Sequence record: PZ386974.1
Strand: one strand, 5' to 3'
Origin: a phage
Length of the DNA: 64,000 bases
In this document: in pieces, positions 1,498-44,535 of the stretch
Layout: the number at the start of each line of letters is the position of its first letter
How positions within the stretch are numbered: position 1 is the first letter of the stretch
The notes under the pieces: generated by a model
Database searches by the model: none
The model's input: only the letters and a program-made list of their open reading frames with translations
What the model was told of the DNA's origin: nothing
Program-made: the position numbers and the translations under genes

Positions 1498-1866
1498 TTA
1501 TGCAACTTTAATCCAATTGTCTAAATTTAAAACACCTTTGGCTTTCATTTTTTCGATCAGGTTATCTGCTGTAATGCGTCCATTTTGATACCATGTAACA
1601 TCTTCAGAGTAACCAGTTTCTTCGTCAACATATGTTTCTGAACGAATTTTACCGGTAATAATAGTTTTTAATTCGTATGTGTCACCTGTGAAAAAGTTTG
1701 CTAACACAATTTTCCAAGAGAAATCATCTGAAGGACCTTCAGGGGTCATACAACTTACGATCTCAAATTGCTCTTTGTATAACATCCACTGGAATTCTTT
1801 AATTTCGATAGCTTTATAACCATCGTGGTCTTTACATTTGATGTATGAGTTCAGATTGATTTTCAT
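1498..1866 (-). CDS. hypothetical protein (122 aa)
   Basis: ORF track; ATG start. Confidence 0.55.
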   Translation of the reverse strand: MKINLNSYIKCKDHDGYKAIEIKEFQWMLYKEQFEIVSCMTPEGPSDDFSWKIVLANFFTGDTYELKTIITGKIRSETYVDEETGYSEDVTWYQNGRITADNLIEKMKAKGVLNLDNWIKVA

Positions 1867-10235: not shown

Positions 10236-10645
10236 TACTTTTTCTTATGTTGGATATTCCAAGGCGGGTTGAACTTTTTGATAAAAAGTGGTTCTTCAAG
10301 GTCCATTGTTGCGATGGTCATTGAACCAAGTTCGTTGGTGACTGAAAGGTCAAAACATTGGCGGGCCCAGAATTCAACCTTTTTGCCTTGCATTAAGGCA
10401 TCCAAAATCATAAGTGATTTTCTTGAATCTGAAGTCTGGTCTTTTCGATTTATGGCTGTTCGATAATAGTTAATGCGTTTCTTTAAATTCTTGGTTTTAC
10501 CAATATACACAAGTTCGTCATCTATAGCAATAGCGTATATGACATTTTTCTTATTAGGGACATCAACTGTTTTAATTGTTGCATCTTCTAATAGCTCCAA
10601 TTCTGTATATTTAATAAAGGAATATTCGGCGGCAATATCTTTCAT
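10235..10645 (-). CDS. denA: endonuclease II (GIY-YIG family)
   Basis: 136 aa; VIYAIAIDDELVYIGKTKNLKKRINYY GIY-YIG core; length and sequence match T4 DenA. Confidence 0.88.
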   Translation of the reverse strand: MKDIAAEYSFIKYTELELLEDATIKTVDVPNKKNVIYAIAIDDELVYIGKTKNLKKRINYYRTAINRKDQTSDSRKSLMILDALMQGKKVEFWARQCFDLSVTNELGSMTIATMDLEEPLFIKKFNPPWNIQHKKK

Positions 10646-10653
10646 AATAAAGT

Positions 10654-10667
10654 GGGACCGAAGTCCC
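10654..10667 (-). terminator. hairpin GGGAC-CGAA-GUCCC (UUCG loop on the minus-strand transcript)
   Basis: Between nrdB stop (10672) and denA start (10645); 5-bp GC stem, tetraloop. Confidence 0.4.
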
Positions 10668-10671
10668 GTCC

Positions 10672-11847
10672 TTAGAAATATTTTTTGTATGAATTGATTA
10701 CATTTTGGTCTACATCATTATCAATTTGTGCGACAAGATAAGAACTGATTTCAACTTCCTGAGGAGCTGCTTGAACTAAATCAGAGTTCAGATATTCACG
10801 AATCCAAGGATACGGATGCTTTGTCGGAGCATCAGTGATTGGGCATGGCAAACCACACTGTTTCATACGAGACACAGTCAAGTAATCAACAAAAGCACAC
10901 ATACTCTGTGTATTGATGCCTGGGCATGTACCGTCTTTAAAGAGGTGTGCAGCCCATTCCTTCTCTTGACTATTTACTTCCATAAAAATGTCAACTGCTT
11001 CTTGTTCACATTCTTTAGCAATTTGAACCCACTCATCACCGTCAGTACCAGATTGAAGTTGACGGATAATGTACTGAGTACCCTTGAGATGGAGTTGTTC
11101 GTCACGAGCAATGAACTTCATAATCTTTGCATTACCTTCCATAATTTCCATATTTTTATGGAAGTTGAAAGTACATGCAAATGATACGTAAAAACGAATA
11201 GCTTCTAAGGCGTTGATAACATGCAAACAGAGATAAAGAGACTTCATTAAATCACGCTTGGCGTTAAACATTATTTCTTCGTACATCTCAATATCATTCT
11301 GCTGGCATGAGCCTATTGAATACTCATAATTTTCCTTAGCATTTTCCCAATGACGAGTCTTGACTAGAACATCATCGTAATATTTACCTATTGATTCAGC
11401 TCGTTTCATGATTGCTTCGTCTAATACAATCTCATCAAATACCTTAGATGGGTCTGTATAAAGATTTCGCATAATATGAGTATACGAACGAGAGTGAATA
11501 GTTTCACTGAAAGTCCATGTTGCAACCCATGTATCTAATGAAGGGTCAGAAATCAGTGCCATAAGTACCGCAGATGGGGCCCTGCCTTGGATAGAATCTA
11601 ATAATGATTGATACTTAAGATTGTTTGTAAAGATGTCCTGTTGGAACTGAGGAAGCTTATTGAACTGCGCAGAGTCCAACATCAAGTTTACCTCTTCGGG
11701 GCGCCAGAAAAATGACAATTGCTTTTCGGTCAAATCTTCAAAAACTTTATGGCGTTGAATATCATAACGCGCAATACCAAGACCAGAACCAAAGAACATC
11801 GGTTCATTCAAAACATCGACTTGTTGTGTGTTAAAAACTGTACTCAT
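10672..11847 (-). CDS. nrdB: ribonucleotide reductase small (beta) subunit
   Basis: Ferritin-like RNR R2 fold with di-iron ligand motifs; track start 11859 is GTG, in-frame ATG at 11847 gives MSTVFNTQQ...; single uninterrupted ORF. Confidence 0.9.
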   Translation of the reverse strand: MSTVFNTQQVDVLNEPMFFGSGLGIARYDIQRHKVFEDLTEKQLSFFWRPEEVNLMLDSAQFNKLPQFQQDIFTNNLKYQSLLDSIQGRAPSAVLMALISDPSLDTWVATWTFSETIHSRSYTHIMRNLYTDPSKVFDEIVLDEAIMKRAESIGKYYDDVLVKTRHWENAKENYEYSIGSCQQNDIEMYEEIMFNAKRDLMKSLYLCLHVINALEAIRFYVSFACTFNFHKNMEIMEGNAKIMKFIARDEQLHLKGTQYIIRQLQSGTDGDEWVQIAKECEQEAVDIFMEVNSQEKEWAAHLFKDGTCPGINTQSMCAFVDYLTVSRMKQCGLPCPITDAPTKHPYPWIREYLNSDLVQAAPQEVEISSYLVAQIDNDVDQNVINSYKKYF

Positions 11848-14499: not shown

Positions 14500-16185
<1,686 letters not shown>

Positions 16186-20301: not shown

Positions 20302-23300
20302 ATGGCCGACATCAAACGTAAGTTCAGAGCCGAAGACGGTCTGGACGCCGGTGGCGACAAGATTGTTAACGTAGCATTAGCCGACCGTACAGTAGGTACT
20401 GATGGCGTAAACGTTGACTTCCTGGTACAAGAAAACACCGTTCAAGTATATGATTCTACGCGTGGATATAACAAAGGATTTGTTGTTCTTTATGACAACC
20501 GTTTATATCAAGCAATAAATGATATCGTGTCTCCTTCCGGGGCATTTAACCTTTTACAATGGCGTGCAGTTCGTACCGATGCACAATGGATAACTGTAGC
20601 TTCTGGGACTTATCAACTTTCTTCAGGTGAATCGATTTCGGTTAACACCAGTGCCGGCAATGATATGGTTTTCACGTTGCCAAATGCGCCGGTTGATGGT
20701 GACACTATTGTTTTGGCTGATATTGGTGGAAGAACCGGGGCAGTTAAAGTACAGATTAACGCGTCTGTGCAGAGTATTTTAAACTTTAGAGGCGAACAAG
20801 TTCGTACAGTTTTAATGACGCGTCCGCGTTCACAACTAGTGTTTGTGTTTAGTAATCGTTTGTGGCAGATGTATATCATTGATTACGGTAAAGAATCAAT
20901 CACTGTTACACCTGCTACACCATATCAAGCGCAAGCAAACGATTTTATTGTTCTTCGTTTTACTAGTGCAGCACCAATCAACATTACACTTCCACGTAAT
21001 GCTAACAATGGTGATATAATCAGCCTAGTTGATTTAGATAAATTAAACCCACTGTATCATACGATTATTAAAACATTTGATGATACAACGTCTATTGGCG
21101 AAGTCGGGACTCATATCGTCGAAGGTAGAACTTCTTCTGACGCGTTTTTTGTTTTTGATGCTGCAAATAGTTTATGGCGTATATGGGAAGGCGACCAGAA
21201 ATCACGTCTTCGTATTATCCGTACAGATTCAAATATTCGCCCAAATGAAGAAGTTCTTATTTTTGGTACAAATAACGCTACAGCAGAAACTATTAACCTT
21301 ACGCTTCCTACAGGAATTTTGACCGGTGACACTGTTAAAATTTCAATGAACTACATGCGTAAAGGCCAAACAGTAAAAATTAAAGCTGCCGAAGGTGATA
21401 CAATTGCTTCTTCTGTCGCATTACTTCAGTTCCCTAAACGTTCTGAATATCCACCTGATACTCAATGGGTCTCTGTTACTGAACTAGAATTCAATGGCAC
21501 TACTTCATATGTTCCTGTATTAGAATTAGCGTATATCGAAGACACCGATTCTGACACTCATTATTGGGTTGTGCAACAGAATGTCCCTACAGTAGAACGT
21601 GTTGATGCCGGAACTGATGCTACACGAGCTCGTTTAGGTGTTATTGCTCTTGCTACTCAAGCGCAAGCAAATGCTGATTTAGAGAATACTCCAGCTAAAG
21701 AAGTGGCTATTACTCCTGAAACGTTGGCAAATCGTACAGCAACTGAAGCTCGACGTGGTATCGCTAAAATTGCTACAACAGCACAAGTTAACCAGAATTC
21801 CACAGCATCATTTGTGGACGATACTGTTGTTACGCCTAAAAAACTAAATGAGCGTACAGCAACTGAAACTCGTCGTGGTCTTGCTGAAATTGCTACTCAG
21901 ACTGAAACCGATGCTGGTCTTGATGACACAACGATTATTACACCTAAGAAATTGCAGGCACGTCAGGGTTCTGAAACACTATCTGGTATAGTTAAATATG
22001 TATCAACTACTTCTGCTACTCCGGCTGCATCTCGTGGAGCTGCAGGCACTAATGTTTATAATAAAGACACAACCACGTTAACTATTTCTCCTAAAGCCCT
22101 TGACCAATATAAAGCAACTTATGCTCAACAAGGTGCAGTAATTTTAGCTGTTGATAGTGAAGTAATTGCTGGTCAATCACAAGCAGGTTATTCTCATGCT
22201 GTAGTAACTCCTGAAACACTACATAAGAAAACTTCTACTGATGGACGTATTGGTTTAATTGAAATTGCTACGCAAGCAGAAACTAATGCTGGGACTGATT
22301 ATACGCGGGCAGTAACGCCTAAGACGTTAAATGATAGGAAAGCTACGGAAGGATTATCCGGCATAGCCGAACTTGCTACGCAAGTTGAATTTGATACTGG
22401 AACTGATGATACTCGTATCTCGACTCCACTGAAAATTAAAACTCATTTTGATTCTTCTGACCGTACCAGTGTTAATTCTGATTCCGGACTTATTGAAGAA
22501 GGAACCTTGTGGAACCATTATACTCTTGATATTTCTAAAGCAAATGAAACACAACGTGGTACACTTCGCGTAGCGACTCAGGCAGAATCTAATGCAGGAA
22601 CTTTAGATGATGTTCTTATTACTCCTAAAAAGCTTTTAGGGACTAAGTCCACTGAAACGTCTGAAGGTGTAATTAAGGTTGCTACTCGGGCTGAAACTGT
22701 AACAGGAACTTCTGCTAATACTGCTGTATCGCCTAAGAATTTAAAATGGATTGTCCAGAATGAACCAACATGGGCTGCTACTACGGCAATTCGTGGATTC
22801 GTTAAAACTTCATCCGGTTCTATTACATTCGTTGGTAATGATACAGTTGGTTCAACACAACCTTTAGAATCATATGAGAAAAATAGTTATGCGGTATCAC
22901 CATATGAATTAAACCGTGTACTTGCTAACTATTTGCCATTAAAAGCAAAAGCTGCTGACTCAAATTTATTAGATGGCCTAGATTCATCTCAGTTCATTCG
23001 TAGGGACATTGCACAGACGGTTAATGGTTCACTAACCTTAACCCAACAAACGAATCTGAGTGCCCCTCTTGTATCATCTAGTACTGCTACGTTTGGTGGT
23101 TCAGTTTCGGCAAATAGTACATTAACTATTTCTAATACTGGAACGGCAACTCGTCTGATTTTTGAGAAAGGACCTCAAACTGGAACTAACCCAGTGCAGA
23201 CGATGACTATCAGAGTTTGGGGAAATCAGTTTGGTGGCGGTTCAGATACAACACGTTCTACTGTATTTGAGGTTGGTGATGAAACATCTAATCACTTTTA

Positions 23301-25343: not shown

Positions 25344-25351
25344 TATAAATA
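25344..25351 (+). promoter_or_regulatory. late promoter TATAAATA for gene 36
   Basis: Exact octamer 25 nt upstream of gene 36 ATG, immediately after the terminator hairpin. Confidence 0.6.
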
Positions 25352-26049: not shown

Positions 26050-29000
26050 ATGGCTACATTAAAACAGATACAATTTAAAAGAAGCAAAGTAGCAGGAGTT
26101 AATCCTACTGCAGCACAATTAGCCGAAGGCGAATTAGCGATAAACTTAAAAGATCGAACTCTTTTTACTAAAGATGACCTCGGTAATATTATTAGCCTAG
26201 GCTTTGCTAAGGGTGGGGATATTAACGGTAATGTAACTCAAAATGGTGATTATTTACAAAACGGCACATTTAACCTCAATGGAAATCAGTTTGTTTATGC
26301 AGGAAAATACATTGAATTTTTACCTAAAACCACTGGAAATGGCGCTTGGGCTAACCAACATTCGAATAAAGCCCCTATCTTTACAGATTTGAGTTCAACT
26401 ACTTCTATTTCAGAATACCACCCTTTGATTAAACAACGCTATAAAGATGGAACTTTTTCTGCTGGTACATTAGTAAACGAAGGTAGTTTTAAATTCCATT
26501 ATATTGATGAAACCGGGACTTCAAAATACTGGACTTTTAATCGAAACGGTAATTTTCAAGTTGATTCTGGAAGTTTATTAGTATCTAATGGATATTTAGT
26601 TACTCAAAGTAATATTGAAACTAAAGCTGGTTCTTTAATTGGTCCTAAAGTTATTACCAAAAATATCAATGTGAGCACTAAATCTTGGGGCACTAATATT
26701 GATACTGCATATGATTTAGTTTCATTACCGACTTGGCACTATACTCCAACCGAAACAGATTTGGATACTAATGGTATAAACTACCTTCGTAAATTCCGCG
26801 GACATGTTTCTTCTGCTATTTTCCATGAAGTTGCTGATGCTCGTTCAGGTAAACCACAGAATATTTCGTATTGGACGGGACGTAATGCTGAAGTTTATCA
26901 ATGGTCTTATACCACAGATGGGCGTATGTCTGTTGCTAATTCGATAGGTATAGGTCTTGCTGATGTTGGTGACCAAGGACGTTATCCATTGGTTTCGTTT
27001 GGTAAAGGTATTGCAATTGGTGACAATGATACTGGTATTAAATGGGTTCGTGACGGGGTTATCGATTTAGTTGCGAATGGTATTTCTGCCGGCACTATTC
27101 TTAATAACGGCATTAACAGTACTAAAAAATTGATGGTTGGTTATAGTCGAGATTCTGGTTCTACTTGGGATTACCCAAATAACAACCAAGCAATGTTTAC
27201 TGCGCGTACCGATGTTGATGGTAATAATAACGGTGACGGTCAGACTCATATTGGTTATAGCAGCAATGCCAAGATGTATCACTATTTCCGTGGCACTGGT
27301 CGTATGTCCGTTAGTATGGGCGATGGACTTCTTGTTGAGCCTGGCATTTTAGATATTAAAACTGGTTCAAATTCGTTAAATTTGCGTGCTGATGGTACCA
27401 TCGCTTCCGTTCAAACGTTAAAACTTAATAATGGATTATATTTTAATGGCGATGGAACTAATGCTTCTCTAGTTTTTAAAGCAGCTTCAGGTATTGATGG
27501 CACTAAGCAAATCATGTGGGAAGGCGGTACTCGAGCAGGTCAGAATAAGAGTTATGTAACGGCTAAAGCATGGGGTAATTCATTTAATGCCACTGGTGAT
27601 AAATCTCGTGAAACTGTATTTGAAGTTAGTGACGGGCATGGATACCATTTTTATTCTCAACGTGTAGCTCCTGCGCCTGGTTCTACCGTCGGACCTATTC
27701 AATTTCGAGTTAATGGTGGTTTATTAACTTCAGGTAGTATTGTTACTTCTGGTTCTATTACAACTGAATCTTCTTTAAGTGTTAATAATGGCATGTCAGT
27801 AAATGGACAAGCTAAATTCGGTGGAACTGCTGATGCATTAAGAATTTGGAATGCTGAATACGGTGCTATTTTCCGTCGTTCAGAGGCGGCATTGCATATT
27901 ATTCCAACTCCTAAAGATGCAGGTGAATCTGGCGGAATAAGTAATCTTCGCCCATTAAGTATCAGCCTTAATAATGGTATGGTGCAAATGCGTCATTCTG
28001 TCACGTTAGGTGACGATGGTGCTGGCGGTAATATGATTACAGTGGACAATGATAACAAACTTGTTGTTGTTACTAGTAATAGTCGCATTTCTCCTAATTT
28101 CAGAATGCAGATAGGTCAGTCGGCATACATTGATGCAGAATGTACTGATAGAGCACGTCCGGCCGGAGCGGGTTCTTTTGCTTCCCAAAATAATGAAAAT
28201 GTACGTGCGCCGTTCTATATGAATATTGATAGAACTGATACTAGTACATATGTTCCTATTTTGAAACAACGATATGTTCAAGGAAATAGCTGTTATTCTT
28301 TAGGAACTCTAATTAATGGTGGTAACTTTAGAGTTCATTATCATGAAGGTGGTGATAATGATTCGACGGGCCCTTTAATTAAGGACTTCGGGTGGGAATT
28401 CAATAGAACCGGTGATTTTATTTCCCCTGGTAAATTAGGCGCTGGTACGGTTCGTATTGGTACTGACGGTAACATCACAGGTGGTTCTGGTAATTTTGCC
28501 AACTTAAATAGTACAATTGAATCACTTAAAACTGATATTGTCTCAAGTTATCCAATTGGTGCTCCGATTCCATGGCCTACTGATACACCTCCTGAAGGTT
28601 ATGCCATAATGGAAGGTCAAACATTTGATGCTGGCTTGTATCCTAAGTTAGCTGCGGTGTATCCTTCCGGCTCTCTGCCTGATATGCGTGGTCAAACTAT
28701 CAAGGGTAAACCATCTGGGCGTGCTGTATTGAGTACAGAAGCAGACGGTGTTAAGTCACATAGCCATAGTGCAAGTGCATCAAGCACAGATTTGGGTACT
28801 AAGACCACTTCTAGTTTTGATTACGGTAGCAAAACGACTTCAAGCTTTGATTATGGTACTAAGACCAGTAATACCACTGGCAACCATAACCATACAGTGA
28901 GTGGTAATACTAGTTCCGCAGGAGCTCACCACCACGCGCGTTCAGGTCCTCAGGTACAAGGCGGCATACCCACTAGCGTATTCTATGATGGATACAATAG

Positions 29001-29304
29001 TGCTGGTCCAAACGGCAACGCTAAATTCACTGCAACCGTGAGCGGTGCTACTGCATCGTCGAATATGGCCAAAACTTCTTCAGACGGTGCCCACACCCAT
29101 AGTTGGTCAGGAACTACTAGCTCTACGGGTAACCACGCGCATACTGTAGGTATCGGTGCCCATAGCCATTCGGTCGGTATTGGTGCTCATACCCACACGG
29201 TAGCTATTGGTTCGCACGGTCATACTATCACTGTAAATAGTACAGGAAATACAGAAAACACAGTTAAAAACGTTGCTTTTAACTATATCGTTCGTTTAGC
29301 ATAA
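26050..29304 (+). CDS. 37: long tail fibre distal subunit gp37 (receptor-binding tip)
   Basis: 1084 aa; N-terminal region shares repeats with gp34; C-terminus has tandem [11 protein letters not shown] repeats and seven or more HxH boxes (HSHS, NHNH, AHHH, HTHS, NHAH, HSHS, HTHT, HGH). Confidence 0.92.
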
Positions 29305-29310
29305 GGAGAA

Positions 29311-29329
29311 GGGACCTCAGTCCCTTTTT
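29311..29329 (+). terminator. hairpin GGGAC-CUCA-GUCCC plus U5 between genes 37 and 38
   Basis: 5-bp stem, U-run; lies between the SD-like AAGGAG (29303..29308) and the gene 38 AUG. Confidence 0.55.
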
Positions 29330-29334
29330 ATAAT

Positions 29335-29886
29335 ATGAAACTCTATCATTATTATTTTGACACTAAAGAATTTTACAAAGAAGAAAATTATAAACCATTA
29401 AAAGGCGTAGGATTTCCGGCTCATTCGACACCAAAAAAACCTTTAGACCCTAAAGAAGGCTATGCTGTTATATTTGATGAACGCGAACAAGAATGGGTAT
29501 ATGTTGAAGACCATCGTGGAAAAACGGTATGGACTTATGATAAGCAAAAAATTGTTATTGACACTCCAGGTGCTCTTCAAAATGTTACTACAGAAGAACC
29601 TGGTGAATTTGACATTTGGACCGACGACGGGTGGAAGGAAGATGAAGCATATAAACGTGTAGTTCAACGTGATAAGAAAATTCATGAACTCTATAAATTA
29701 TTCAGTGTTTTAAGTTCTCTTATTGATGCAGAGGTTGCTAATAGAGAAGAAAAACGAAAATTTAAAGAGCTCAAAAAATTCTTTGCCCTTTTAGAAAAAC
29801 ATGAACATCTTGGCGGCGAATTCCCTAAATTCCCTGACCTTGAAAGCAAATCACTTGTTAAACGAATTATAAATATCTTTAAGTAA
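29335..29886 (+). CDS. 38: tail fibre assembly chaperone gp38 (T4-type)
   Basis: 183 aa, same length as T4 gp38 and collinear with it as recalled (MKLYHYYFDTKEFYKEENYKP...). Confidence 0.88.
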   Translation: MKLYHYYFDTKEFYKEENYKPLKGVGFPAHSTPKKPLDPKEGYAVIFDEREQEWVYVEDHRGKTVWTYDKQKIVIDTPGALQNVTTEEPGEFDIWTDDGWKEDEAYKRVVQRDKKIHELYKLFSVLSSLIDAEVANREEKRKFKELKKFFALLEKHEHLGGEFPKFPDLESKSLVKRIINIFK

Positions 29887-29895
29887 GGAGGTATT

Positions 29896-30555
29896 ATGGC
29901 AACACCAAAAGTGTCATTTTCGCCTAGTGATATTCTATTTGGGTTGCTAGATCGTATTTTCAAAGATAACGCTACTGGAAAGGTTTTAATGTCCCGAGTA
30001 GCGGTAATTATTCTTTTGTTCCTAATGGCACTAATATGGTACAAAGGAAGTATTTTGCTGGATTATTATGTAAGAGCTAAGTATGATACTTATACTGAAA
30101 TAATCCAAAAAGAACGAGCTTTACGTTTTGAATCTGCGGCTCTAGAACAACTGCAAATAGTTCATATCTCATCTGGTGCAGATTTTAGTGCTGTGTATTC
30201 TTTCAGACCTAAAAACTTAAATTATTTTGTCGACCTTATAGCTTATGAAGGCAAACTACCTAGCACAATTTCTGAAAAGTCCCTTGGCGGATTCCCGGTG
30301 GATAAAACGGCCAATGAATATATAATTCATTTAAGCGGCCGTCATTTCTCATCTAAATCAGAATTTGCATTTTTGCCTACAAAATCTAAGACTGCCGAAC
30401 TTTCTTATATGTATAGCTGTCCATACTTTAATTTGGATAACATCTATGCTGGAACTGTGACGATGTATTGGTATAAGGGGAATAATATACTTGAGGAGGA
30501 CCGCTTAGCGGCTATATGCAACCAAGCGGTCCGAATACTAGGAAGGGCTAAATAA
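29896..30555 (+). CDS. t: holin T
   Basis: 219 aa; single N-terminal TM helix and large periplasmic domain; matches T4 holin T; SD AAGGAGG upstream. Confidence 0.9.
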   Translation: MATPKVSFSPSDILFGLLDRIFKDNATGKVLMSRVAVIILLFLMALIWYKGSILLDYYVRAKYDTYTEIIQKERALRFESAALEQLQIVHISSGADFSAVYSFRPKNLNYFVDLIAYEGKLPSTISEKSLGGFPVDKTANEYIIHLSGRHFSSKSEFAFLPTKSKTAELSYMYSCPYFNLDNIYAGTVTMYWYKGNNILEEDRLAAICNQAVRILGRAK

Positions 30556-33736: not shown

Positions 33737-33752
33737 GGGAGCCGAAGCTCCC
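33737..33752 (-). terminator. intrinsic terminator GGGAGC-CGAA-GCUCCC plus U-run
   Basis: Downstream of gene 52 stop; A4 on plus strand left of stem gives the U-run on the transcript. Confidence 0.6.
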
Positions 33753-37603: not shown

Positions 37604-37619
37604 GGGGACCGAAGTCCCC
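37604..37619 (-). terminator. intrinsic terminator GGGGAC-CGAA-GUCCCC plus U-run
   Basis: 6-bp GC stem 6 nt after rIIB stop; A5 on plus strand left of stem. Confidence 0.65.
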
Positions 37620-44049: not shown

Positions 44050-44100
44050 GTTGTCTCCTCGTTATGAAGGTATTCTATCATCCGAAATCTAAAGCAAAAA

Positions 44101-44112
44101 GGGCCGAAGCCC
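44101..44112 (-). terminator. hairpin GGGC-CGAA-GCCC flanked by A5/T-rich runs
   Basis: Between ORF 44113..44535 stop and gene 39 start. Confidence 0.45.
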
Positions 44113-44535
44113 TTATTTAAATTTAATTTTCTGAAGTGCATCAATTGCAGCCAAACGCCCTTGTTCACTTTTAACTGTAATGACCACATCGCCTGATACG
44201 ATCACCGAACCATCAACAAATTCTATAGAGCCTTTTTTGAAATCGACAGCTGTATCTGGTTCCGGAACTTCTTCAAAGAATTTAAATTCTGCACCATAAA
44301 GCAGAATATCACCTTGCATACTAATGATTGTACGTCCAGGTCCATCGGTTTCAGCGGCAATCATTGAAACACCGTAACCAATCATCTCTTCTACAATAAA
44401 ATCTCTTGATAATAAAACTGTATGCAGAGTAGTGTTAAGACGTTTACCAGTTGTATTAAGAATTCTCAAGAAATTATCTTCTTGACCTTTGATAATACGA
44501 TATTTCTTACCAACTTCAAAACCTTTAAAAGCCAT
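44113..44535 (-). CDS. hypothetical protein (140 aa)
   Basis: ORF track; ATG start; occupies the slot upstream of gene 39 where T4 has goF/39.x. Confidence 0.5.
   Translation of the reverse strand: MAFKGFEVGKKYRIIKGQEDNFLRILNTTGKRLNTTLHTVLLSRDFIVEEMIGYGVSMIAAETDGPGRTIISMQGDILLYGAEFKFFEEVPEPDTAVDFKKGSIEFVDGSVIVSGDVVITVKSEQGRLAAIDALQKIKFK

Follow-up and report, generated by a model that had tools for sequence, protein, structure and literature searches.

A hairpin predicted between a stop-overlapping Shine-Dalgarno sequence and the start codon of gene 38 in a T4-like phage: a probable ortholog of the T4 split ribosome-binding site

In this T4-like phage, gene 38 has a ribosome-binding site that is, with a probability that we put at about 0.8, orthologous to the split (non-contiguous) site known from T4 gene 38, in which a hairpin lying between the Shine-Dalgarno (SD) sequence and the start codon restores the spacing between them. 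Such an arrangement of gene 38 is already known from T4, and the findings given here leave known principles unchanged. Here we analyzed the junction of genes 37 and 38 in the window, which is the whole stretch of 64,000 nucleotides of phage DNA under study, together with the same junction in related phages and a second junction of similar layout.

The phage of the window is T4-like and belongs to the Mosigvirus/Tequatrovirus group, with approximately 95% identity to HX01, PNJ-6 and JS09 over 20 kb. The gene order 36-37-38-t-asiA is the same as in T4. The last 300 residues of the gene 37 product matched the Pfam Collar domain, and records of relatives name this gene long tail fiber distal subunit, while the protein encoded downstream of gene 38 is the T holin (Pfam Phage_holin_T). 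The plus strand at the junction, read directly from the sequence, is gca-TAA-GGAG-AA-GGGAC-CTCA-GTCCC-TTTTT-ATAAT-ATG, and its parts are as follows.

26050..29304, plus strand: gene 37, distal long-tail-fibre subunit, open reading frame of 1084 aa with the stop codon TAA at 29302-29304.
29302..29308, plus strand: SD sequence UAAGGAG, overlapping the gene 37 stop, with 7 contiguous pairs to the 3' end of 16S rRNA; AAGGAG is at 29303-29308.
29306..29329, plus strand: 10-bp stem of the minimum free energy (MFE) fold of the free RNA, in which 29306-29315 are paired with 29320-29329.
29309..29326, plus strand: 7-bp hairpin AAGGGAC / GUCCCUU, obtained by constrained folding with the SD kept single-stranded, abutting the SD.
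29311..29324, plus strand: core hairpin with arms GGGAC (29311-29315) and GUCCC (29320-29324) and a 4-nt loop CUCA (29316-29319).
29325..29334, plus strand: A/U-rich spacer from the hairpin to the AUG, a U5 tract (29325-29329) followed by AUAAU, as read from the sequence.
29335..29886, plus strand: gene 38, T4-type tail-fibre assembly chaperone, open reading frame of 183 aa with AUG at 29335-29337 and a Pfam Caudo_TAP match.

The positions that an earlier note on this DNA had given for AAGGAG, for the hairpin arms and for the AUG at 29335 were all correct when the sequence was read again. The start of gene 38 is unambiguous because no in-frame ATG, GTG or TTG occurs between the TAA at 29302 and the ATG at 29335; an alternative start codon was ruled out by this and by the alignment of the protein with T4 gp38, which begins at residue 1. 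The linear spacer from the last G of AAGGAG to the A of the ATG is exactly 26 nt, and no GGAG, GAGG or AGGA was present at 3–13 nt before the AUG. We thus agree with the earlier claim that the SD of gene 38 is too far away for a linear ribosome-binding site, no SD being found at the canonical spacing, and predictors of ribosome-binding strength that assume a linear spacer would rate this gene as untranslatable.

The folding of the junction was examined with the SD both free to pair and kept open. The 5-bp core hairpin by itself has a predicted energy of -6.6 kcal/mol, whereas the 37 nt from 29301 to 29337 reached an MFE of -13.4 kcal/mol (z = -3.05), and an equally good fold was obtained in 4 of 200 shuffled sequences. 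According to this prediction the hairpin of the earlier note needs correction, for the stem of the free RNA is longer and takes in three bases of the SD: it reaches through AA/UU into the last three SD bases, where G-U and A-U pairs join GAG to UUU, and the unpaired probability in free RNA is 0.09 for G29306, 0.03 for A29307 and 0.01 for G29308. With three SD bases paired in the predicted stem, initiation could be weakened by the structure instead of being promoted. Freeing the SD from the free-RNA fold costs 3.6 kcal/mol by constrained folding; the duplex of UAAGGAG with GAUCACCUCCUUA at the 3' end of 16S rRNA is computed at -9.3 kcal/mol, which outweighs the cost of opening, and capture of the SD is therefore still feasible.

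When the SD was kept open, what was left of the stem was a 7-bp hairpin with -9.8 kcal/mol and with gaps of 0 nt between SD and hairpin and 8 nt between hairpin and AUG. This predicted hairpin is contained entirely in the stretch from SD to AUG and leaves a spacing within the functional range, since the distance from GGAG to AUG is 5–8 nt in 17 of the 23 window genes that are preceded by GGAG. The proposal that folding would restore normal SD-AUG spacing is in this way upheld by the predicted structure.

On these grounds initiation may be pictured as follows. The late 36-37-38 mRNA would carry UAAGGAG across the stop codon of gene 37, and a 30S subunit would pair with its 7 bases, peeling the three weak G-U and A-U pairs off the foot of the stem so that the 7-bp hairpin at 29309-29326 is left. 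This hairpin would begin directly after the SD and loop out 18 nt, and the AUG at 29335 would then lie about 8 nt from the SD, a normal spacing in this genome, from which gene 38 would be translated. By analogy with T4 genes 38 and 25, we infer that a hairpin folded between SD and P site would be tolerated by the ribosome and that translation of gene 38 would depend on the hairpin.

The arrangement is rare within the window. Among 94 crude gene calls a near SD, defined as a 4-nt core at 3–13 nt, was present in 57, and gene 38 was the sole case without a near SD that has an SD of at least 5 nt at 14–40 nt. For all 2569 ATGs of both strands, AGGAG at 14–40 nt without a near SD was found at 32, and only two of the 2569 had in addition an intervening GC-rich hairpin, one of them being gene 38; when the list of SD motifs was relaxed, three ATGs qualified, namely those of gene 38, of a 39-aa antisense open reading frame and of denA. 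The other cases of far-upstream GGAG in the window were set aside, each having either a nearer normal SD or its GGAG within a hairpin stem.

The comparison drew on the junctions of 18 phage records, to which 4 metagenome or IMG/VR loci were added. IMG/VR supplied two relatives only (by protein search and by an anchor 19-mer), and a metagenome scan with the 16-mer CGTTTAGCWTAAGGAG returned 120 DNA stretches, nearly all of them chance matches, with true 37/38 junctions at 2 further loci only (L093 and L111). The collection gave 13 distinct junction variants, the window's and 12 others, from Tequatrovirus, Mosigvirus and Gaprivervirus. The exact junction of the window was absent from 50,697 phage records, the nearest agreeing at 53 of 55 bases, and a search of 28800-30000 against Rfam with a permissive cut-off brought up nothing beyond sub-threshold snoRNA/lncRNA noise, with no curated family on the element.

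UAAGGAG is identical in all 13 variants and overlaps the stop codon of gene 37 in each. Within the stem, the columns that vary do so only by substitutions that preserve pairing, and the others are invariant: 83 of 83 cells are standard pairs, against 26–78% when the 3' partners were slid, and the pair 29314/29321 is A-U in 6 variants, G-C in 5 and G-U in 1. A covariation score as high as the observed one was reached in 3 of 500 shuffles. The loops are UUCG, UUCU, UUAU, UUAG and CUCA, three of the four loop positions being variable. Read from this alignment, the stem is kept by compensatory change, at one covarying pair in closely related phages. The phage G53 offers a close comparison, as its gp38 protein is identical to that of the window and the 30 non-coding bases between gene 37 stop and ATG differ at 3 positions, all within the hairpin: 29314 (G-U in G53, A-U in the window) and the loop bases 29316 and 29319.

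When UAAGGAG was forced to be single-stranded, the hairpin abutted the SD in all 13 variants, and the folded spacer was 6–9 nt against a linear spacer of 22–27 nt. The constancy of the folded spacing, as given by thermodynamic prediction, is the most specific evidence for bridging, and it lends modest but clean comparative support to the old T4 proposal. A chance origin of the gene 38 arrangement was ruled out by its rarity in the window together with its conservation in relatives.

The hairpin is also found where no bridging is called for. RB69, AR1, JS10, Shf125875 and the Klebsiella phage Matisse have an unrelated, T2-type gene 38 and nevertheless the same kind of hairpin after gene 37 (GGGGC-UUCG-GCCCC; in Shf125875 GGGCC-UUCG-GGCCC), and in these T2-type junctions the SD (GGAGG or AGGAG) lies downstream of the hairpin at normal spacing. 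In the Citrobacter phage Moon, whose gp38 is a distant T4-type protein (36% identity), the SD is likewise downstream of the hairpin. A stem that persists even where the SD follows it does not, by its conservation and covariation alone, prove bridging; its retention at junctions with and without a split ribosome-binding site indicates a second function. The phages with the SD placed after the hairpin show a role of the hairpin's own. Judging from these junction sequences, a further function apart from bridging is probable for the hairpin and could be leaky termination or attenuation, protection of the 3' end of the gene 37 message, or uncoupling, and the same comparison points to a hairpin at 37/38 that is older than the split site.

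The earlier note had also taken the hairpin for the terminator after gene 37. Its shape is that of a terminator, as GGGAC-CUCA-GUCCC is directly followed by UUUUU, a GC stem-loop and a U-tract. The claim does not hold for the ending of a transcription unit, as the gap from hairpin to AUG is only 10 nt and leaves no room for a promoter before gene 38. The exact T4 late-promoter motifs flanking gene 38 are these.

25344..25351, plus strand: TATAAATA, before gene 36, the nearest exact motif upstream of gene 38 and the presumed source of the 36-37-38 transcript.
29868-29875, plus strand: TATAAATA, the next exact motif, before the holin gene t.

Between 25344 and 29868 the plus strand holds only matches with 1 mismatch, for example TGTAAATA at 29232, all of them upstream of the hairpin. 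As the 10-nt gap cannot hold a promoter, every gene 38 message must read through the hairpin; expression of gene 38 needs this read-through, and termination is therefore partial or leaky at most.

A weaker form of the same idea is that hairpin and U5 are chiefly a leaky intrinsic terminator, i.e. an attenuator, which lowers the gene 38 message relative to that of gp37, the far SD being a by-product of a terminator squeezed into the junction. This is compatible with a split ribosome-binding site, and we consider it possible though rather doubtful. It draws on the five GC-rich pairs followed directly by UUUUUAUAAU, on hairpins of like build at 37604-37619, 33737-33752 and 44100-44113 on the minus strand, each of which lies behind a stop codon and has U4-5 after it, and on the terminators predicted at the homologous hairpin by the annotators of G2469 and G53. 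It would also accord with the conservation of the hairpin after gene 37 wherever the SD lies, and with T4-type gp38 being a chaperone and not a part of the virion (record annotation). Against it, the exact TATAAATA motif at only 25344 and 29868 means that termination must be incomplete, and no U-tract follows the same hairpin in T4 (UUCUAAAU), RB69 (UUGGAGGU) and Moon (UCUGAGGA). The tract is present in junctions of Mosigvirus type, absent also from those of VR7 type and R5505 type and from AR1 and JS10, and lacking in most Tequatrovirus and Gaprivervirus versions. The MFE fold furthermore pairs the U-tract with the A/G-rich 5' flank; compared with intrinsic terminators, the stem of the window is short and its U-tract is predicted to be paired in this manner. 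A terminator scan of the window did not list the gene 38 hairpin, probably since its stem extends through the U-tract, and a literature search gave no usable mapped T4 terminators or RNA 3' ends after gene 37.

It is unlikely that the hairpin is only an RNA-stability element, a generic T-even intercistronic hairpin of the C(UUCG)G type that blocks 3'-5' exonucleases and protects the gene 37 message, or marks a processing boundary, with no positive role in the initiation of gene 38. Eight intergenic GC-rich tetraloop hairpins are found in the window, the loop being UUCG in 7 of the 8 with that of gene 38 as the exception, and in 6 of the 8, gene 38's included, no more than 8 nt separate the hairpin from the preceding stop codon; hairpins with UUCG tetraloops were first noted in T4 mRNA (PMC4371310), and the hairpin of the junction is retained where the SD lies downstream. 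Such an element would however leave unexplained why the GGAG behind the stop codon is invariant, why the gene 38 AUG has no SD near it and why the folded spacing stays at 6–9 nt despite varying linear spacing.

A further explanation, which appears quite unlikely to us, is the coupling of termination and reinitiation: the SD overlapping the stop would retain the ribosome that has finished gene 37, and the hairpin, refolding after the ribosome had melted it, would deliver the AUG to the retained 30S/70S, so that translation of gene 38 would depend on translation of gene 37 and not on free 30S binding. The SD overlaps the upstream stop in 13 of 13 variants of the 37/38 junction and also at nrdB/denA in 6 genera, and, with the 5' arm beginning 6 nt past the stop codon, the known footprint of the ribosome implies that this arm would have to be unwound when a ribosome stands there. 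The observations made here nonetheless fit free 30S binding equally, the distance from gene 37 stop to gene 38 AUG varies from 29 to 34 nt among the variants, and PMC3014915 and PMC7297116 describe a hairpin that joins SD and start, with no mention of coupling. Initiation independent of the SD, with the A/U-rich UUUUUAUAAU recruiting the ribosome through protein S1 and AAGGAG being irrelevant, is very improbable: the 10 nt directly 5' of the AUG are indeed all A or U (10 of 10) and T4 has CUAAAU, but the non-coding GGAG is invariant in 13 of 13 variants whereas the A/U-rich spacer itself is variable.

The split ribosome-binding site proposed for gene 38 has a counterpart within the window. After the stop codon of nrdB, on the minus strand at 10674-10643, the sequence is TAAGGA-C-GGGAC-TTCG-GTCCC-ACTTTATT-ATG, and the gene that follows nrdB encodes a 136-aa GIY-YIG protein (denA). 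The solved chain of T4 EndoII aligns from the M of this denA ATG. T4 itself has TAAGGAG-TGGGCC-GCAA-GGCCCA-TTTTATT-ATG at nrdB/denA, with a stem sequence unlike that of the window, and the layout is kept in four further genera. From its sequence layout we take nrdB/denA to be a second split site in the window; a literature search found no published split ribosome-binding site of denA. The phage is mosaic in this respect, for its nrdB/denA is 100% identical to that of vB_EQ1, yet the 37/38 junction of vB_EQ1 differs and is T4-type.

As a speculation to which we give little weight, a stop-overlapping SD with an abutting hairpin may recur in T-even phages as a 'hand-off' module, seen at 37/38 and nrdB/denA, in which the hairpin would be the older part and the split ribosome-binding site secondary, arising once the SD fell 5' of it; the module would couple upstream termination to dosed downstream initiation rather than merely shorten the spacer. 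The split layout also misleads gene callers and annotators: in KP869104 the start of gene 38 was called at an ATG inside the hairpin loop, and the RefSeq start of T4 denA is annotated as a GTG inside the hairpin.

Among known systems, lambda is related to the junction through its proteins. Over its last approximately 100 nt, as far as the stop codon, gene 37 is about 75% identical to lambda stf, and lambda Tfa has 32% identity to gp38. The lambda orf-314 (stf) ends at 21973, where orf-194 (tfa) starts, without an intergenic spacer; because the two open reading frames abut, a hairpin could not fit between them.

In T4 mRNA, where UUCG tetraloop hairpins were first noted (Tuerk et al. 1988, according to PMC4371310), intercistronic C(UUCG)G hairpins have the same short GC stem and tetraloop directly after a stop codon. 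Most relatives of the window element carry such a UUCG loop with a C-G closing pair, whereas the copy in the window has lost it and has CUCA in place of the extra-stable UUCG.

T4 genes 38 and 25 have been termed noncontiguous or split ribosome-binding sites (PMC7297116). At the T4 26-25 junction, which holds the 'accommodated' ribosome-binding site of gene 25, a hairpin between SD and AUG cuts the spacing of this gene from 27 to 11 nt; hairpin-destabilising mutations lower initiation, and the gene 25 case was confirmed by reporter and DMS data (Nivinskas et al. 1999; Malys & Nivinskas 2009, as summarised in PMC3014915). The hairpin of gene 25 is intercistronic and conserved among close T-even phages (PMC3014915), and that of the window is likewise intercistronic. 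The T4 gene 25 hairpin belongs to a different gene with unrelated sequence, gene 25 not being in the window, and it is supported by reporter and DMS probing, whereas the window element is known from sequence and predicted fold.

The closest likeness is to T4 gene 38 itself, for which the SD-hairpin-AUG arrangement was reported (PMC3014915; PMC7297116); the case is credited to Gold 1988, its positive effect being worded as 'suggested' (PMC7297116), and the direct tests found in the literature consulted are those on gene 25. The resemblance pointed out in the earlier note is confirmed here by the orthologous 37/38 locus, the same layout and a gp38 that is 68% identical to that of T4. The two junctions share UAAGGAG over the stop codon of gene 37, a GC-rich tetraloop hairpin abutting the SD and a short A/U-rich tail, T4 having TAAGGAG-AGGGGC-TTCG-GCCCTT-CTAAAT-ATG with a spacer of 22 nt against 26 nt in the window. 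The stem of the window is GGGAC/GUCCC with two extra A-U pairs, that of T4 (A)GGGGC/GCCCU(U); the loop is CUCA against the extra-stable UUCG of T4, and the U5 tract after the stem is present in the window and absent in T4 (TTCTAAAT). When folded, the spacing is predicted to be 8 nt in the window and 6 nt in T4 by constrained folding (5 nt in PMC3014915).

A second junction resembling the split ribosome-binding site of gene 38 was found between nrdB and denA, the latter encoding a GIY-YIG endonuclease of 136 aa. The Shine-Dalgarno (SD) sequence of denA overlaps the stop codon of nrdB in the window, and its spacer to the AUG is 23 nt in linear form but 9 nt once folded. The layout recurs in T4, where the stem sequence differs, and is also kept in four genera besides; a literature search for a split ribosome-binding site of denA found no paper describing it. 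The two copies are as follows.

Window 10643-10674, minus strand: nrdB/denA split-site look-alike, TAAGGA-C-GGGAC-TTCG-GTCCC-ACTTTATT-ATG
T4 NC_000866 (L143) 1626-1660, minus strand: nrdB/denA counterpart, stem-loop TGGGCC-GCAA-GGCCCA

The hairpins at both junctions have probably led to misannotated starts, namely that of denA in the T4 RefSeq record and that of gene 38 in KP869104. The RefSeq denA CDS begins at a GTG within the hairpin and gives 144 aa, and the alignment of the solved EndoII chain begins at the ATG downstream of this GTG. In KP869104 the gene 38 CDS starts at an ATG which arises in the hairpin loop (TTATG).

Maintenance of the hairpin after gene 37 does not depend on splitting of the ribosome-binding site, because a conserved hairpin follows the stop codon of gene 37 in phages whose gp38 is a T2-type adhesin (RB69, L144 8350-8392, and four further phages, L145, L146, L147 and L148) and also in Citrobacter phage Moon (L154 212-253), and in all of these the SD of gene 38 lies 3′ of the hairpin at normal spacing.

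None of 50,697 phage records shares the hairpin loop CUCA of the window's own gene 37/38 junction, and the best match to the junction among them covers 53 of 55 bases. The gp38 protein of phage G53 is 100% identical to that of the window, and over the 30 non-coding bases from the gene 37 stop to the ATG the two phages differ only at 29314, 29316 and 29319, all within the hairpin. The gene 37 stop and the gene 38 ATG share a reading frame at a distance of 33 nt (window 29302-29337); in T4 they lie 29 nt apart, so the shared frame is not conserved and probably has no significance.

Among the window's intergenic hairpins of this build, only that of gene 38 lacks a UUCG loop. Six intergenic hairpins with a C(UUCG)G tetraloop were also observed on the minus strand, four of them 0-8 nt past a stop codon.

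44113-44100, minus strand: hairpin, followed by U4-5
42231-42218, minus strand: hairpin, intergenic
37619-37604, minus strand: hairpin, followed by U4-5
35277-35264, minus strand: hairpin, intergenic
33752-33737, minus strand: hairpin, followed by U4-5
1050-1035, minus strand: hairpin, followed by GAGG at normal spacing and AUG

Judged by sequence identity, the window phage is mosaic, with different nearest relatives at the two junctions. Phages vB_EQ1 and MRostami-2023e match the nrdB/denA region (window 10540-10790) at 100% identity; at the 37/38 junction (window 29200-29480) vB_EQ1 shows just 89% identity and carries the T4-type junction, and the nearest match is Mosigvirus mar005P1 (98%).

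Two genes annotated in T4 as joins over introns bearing I-TevI and I-TevIII are each one uninterrupted ORF here, and both T4 introns are therefore absent from this phage.

Window 14503-15360, minus strand: thymidylate synthase, 286 aa
Window 10675-11847, minus strand: NrdB, 391 aa

Over its final ~100 nt (window 29205-29304), gene 37 shares 75% identity with the end of lambda stf (orf-314; L019 21874-21973), and this similarity ends at the stop codon. In lambda, however, the end of stf and the start of tfa both fall at record position 21973, abutting without a hairpin, and the hairpin-bearing spacer is thus specific to the T-even lineage.
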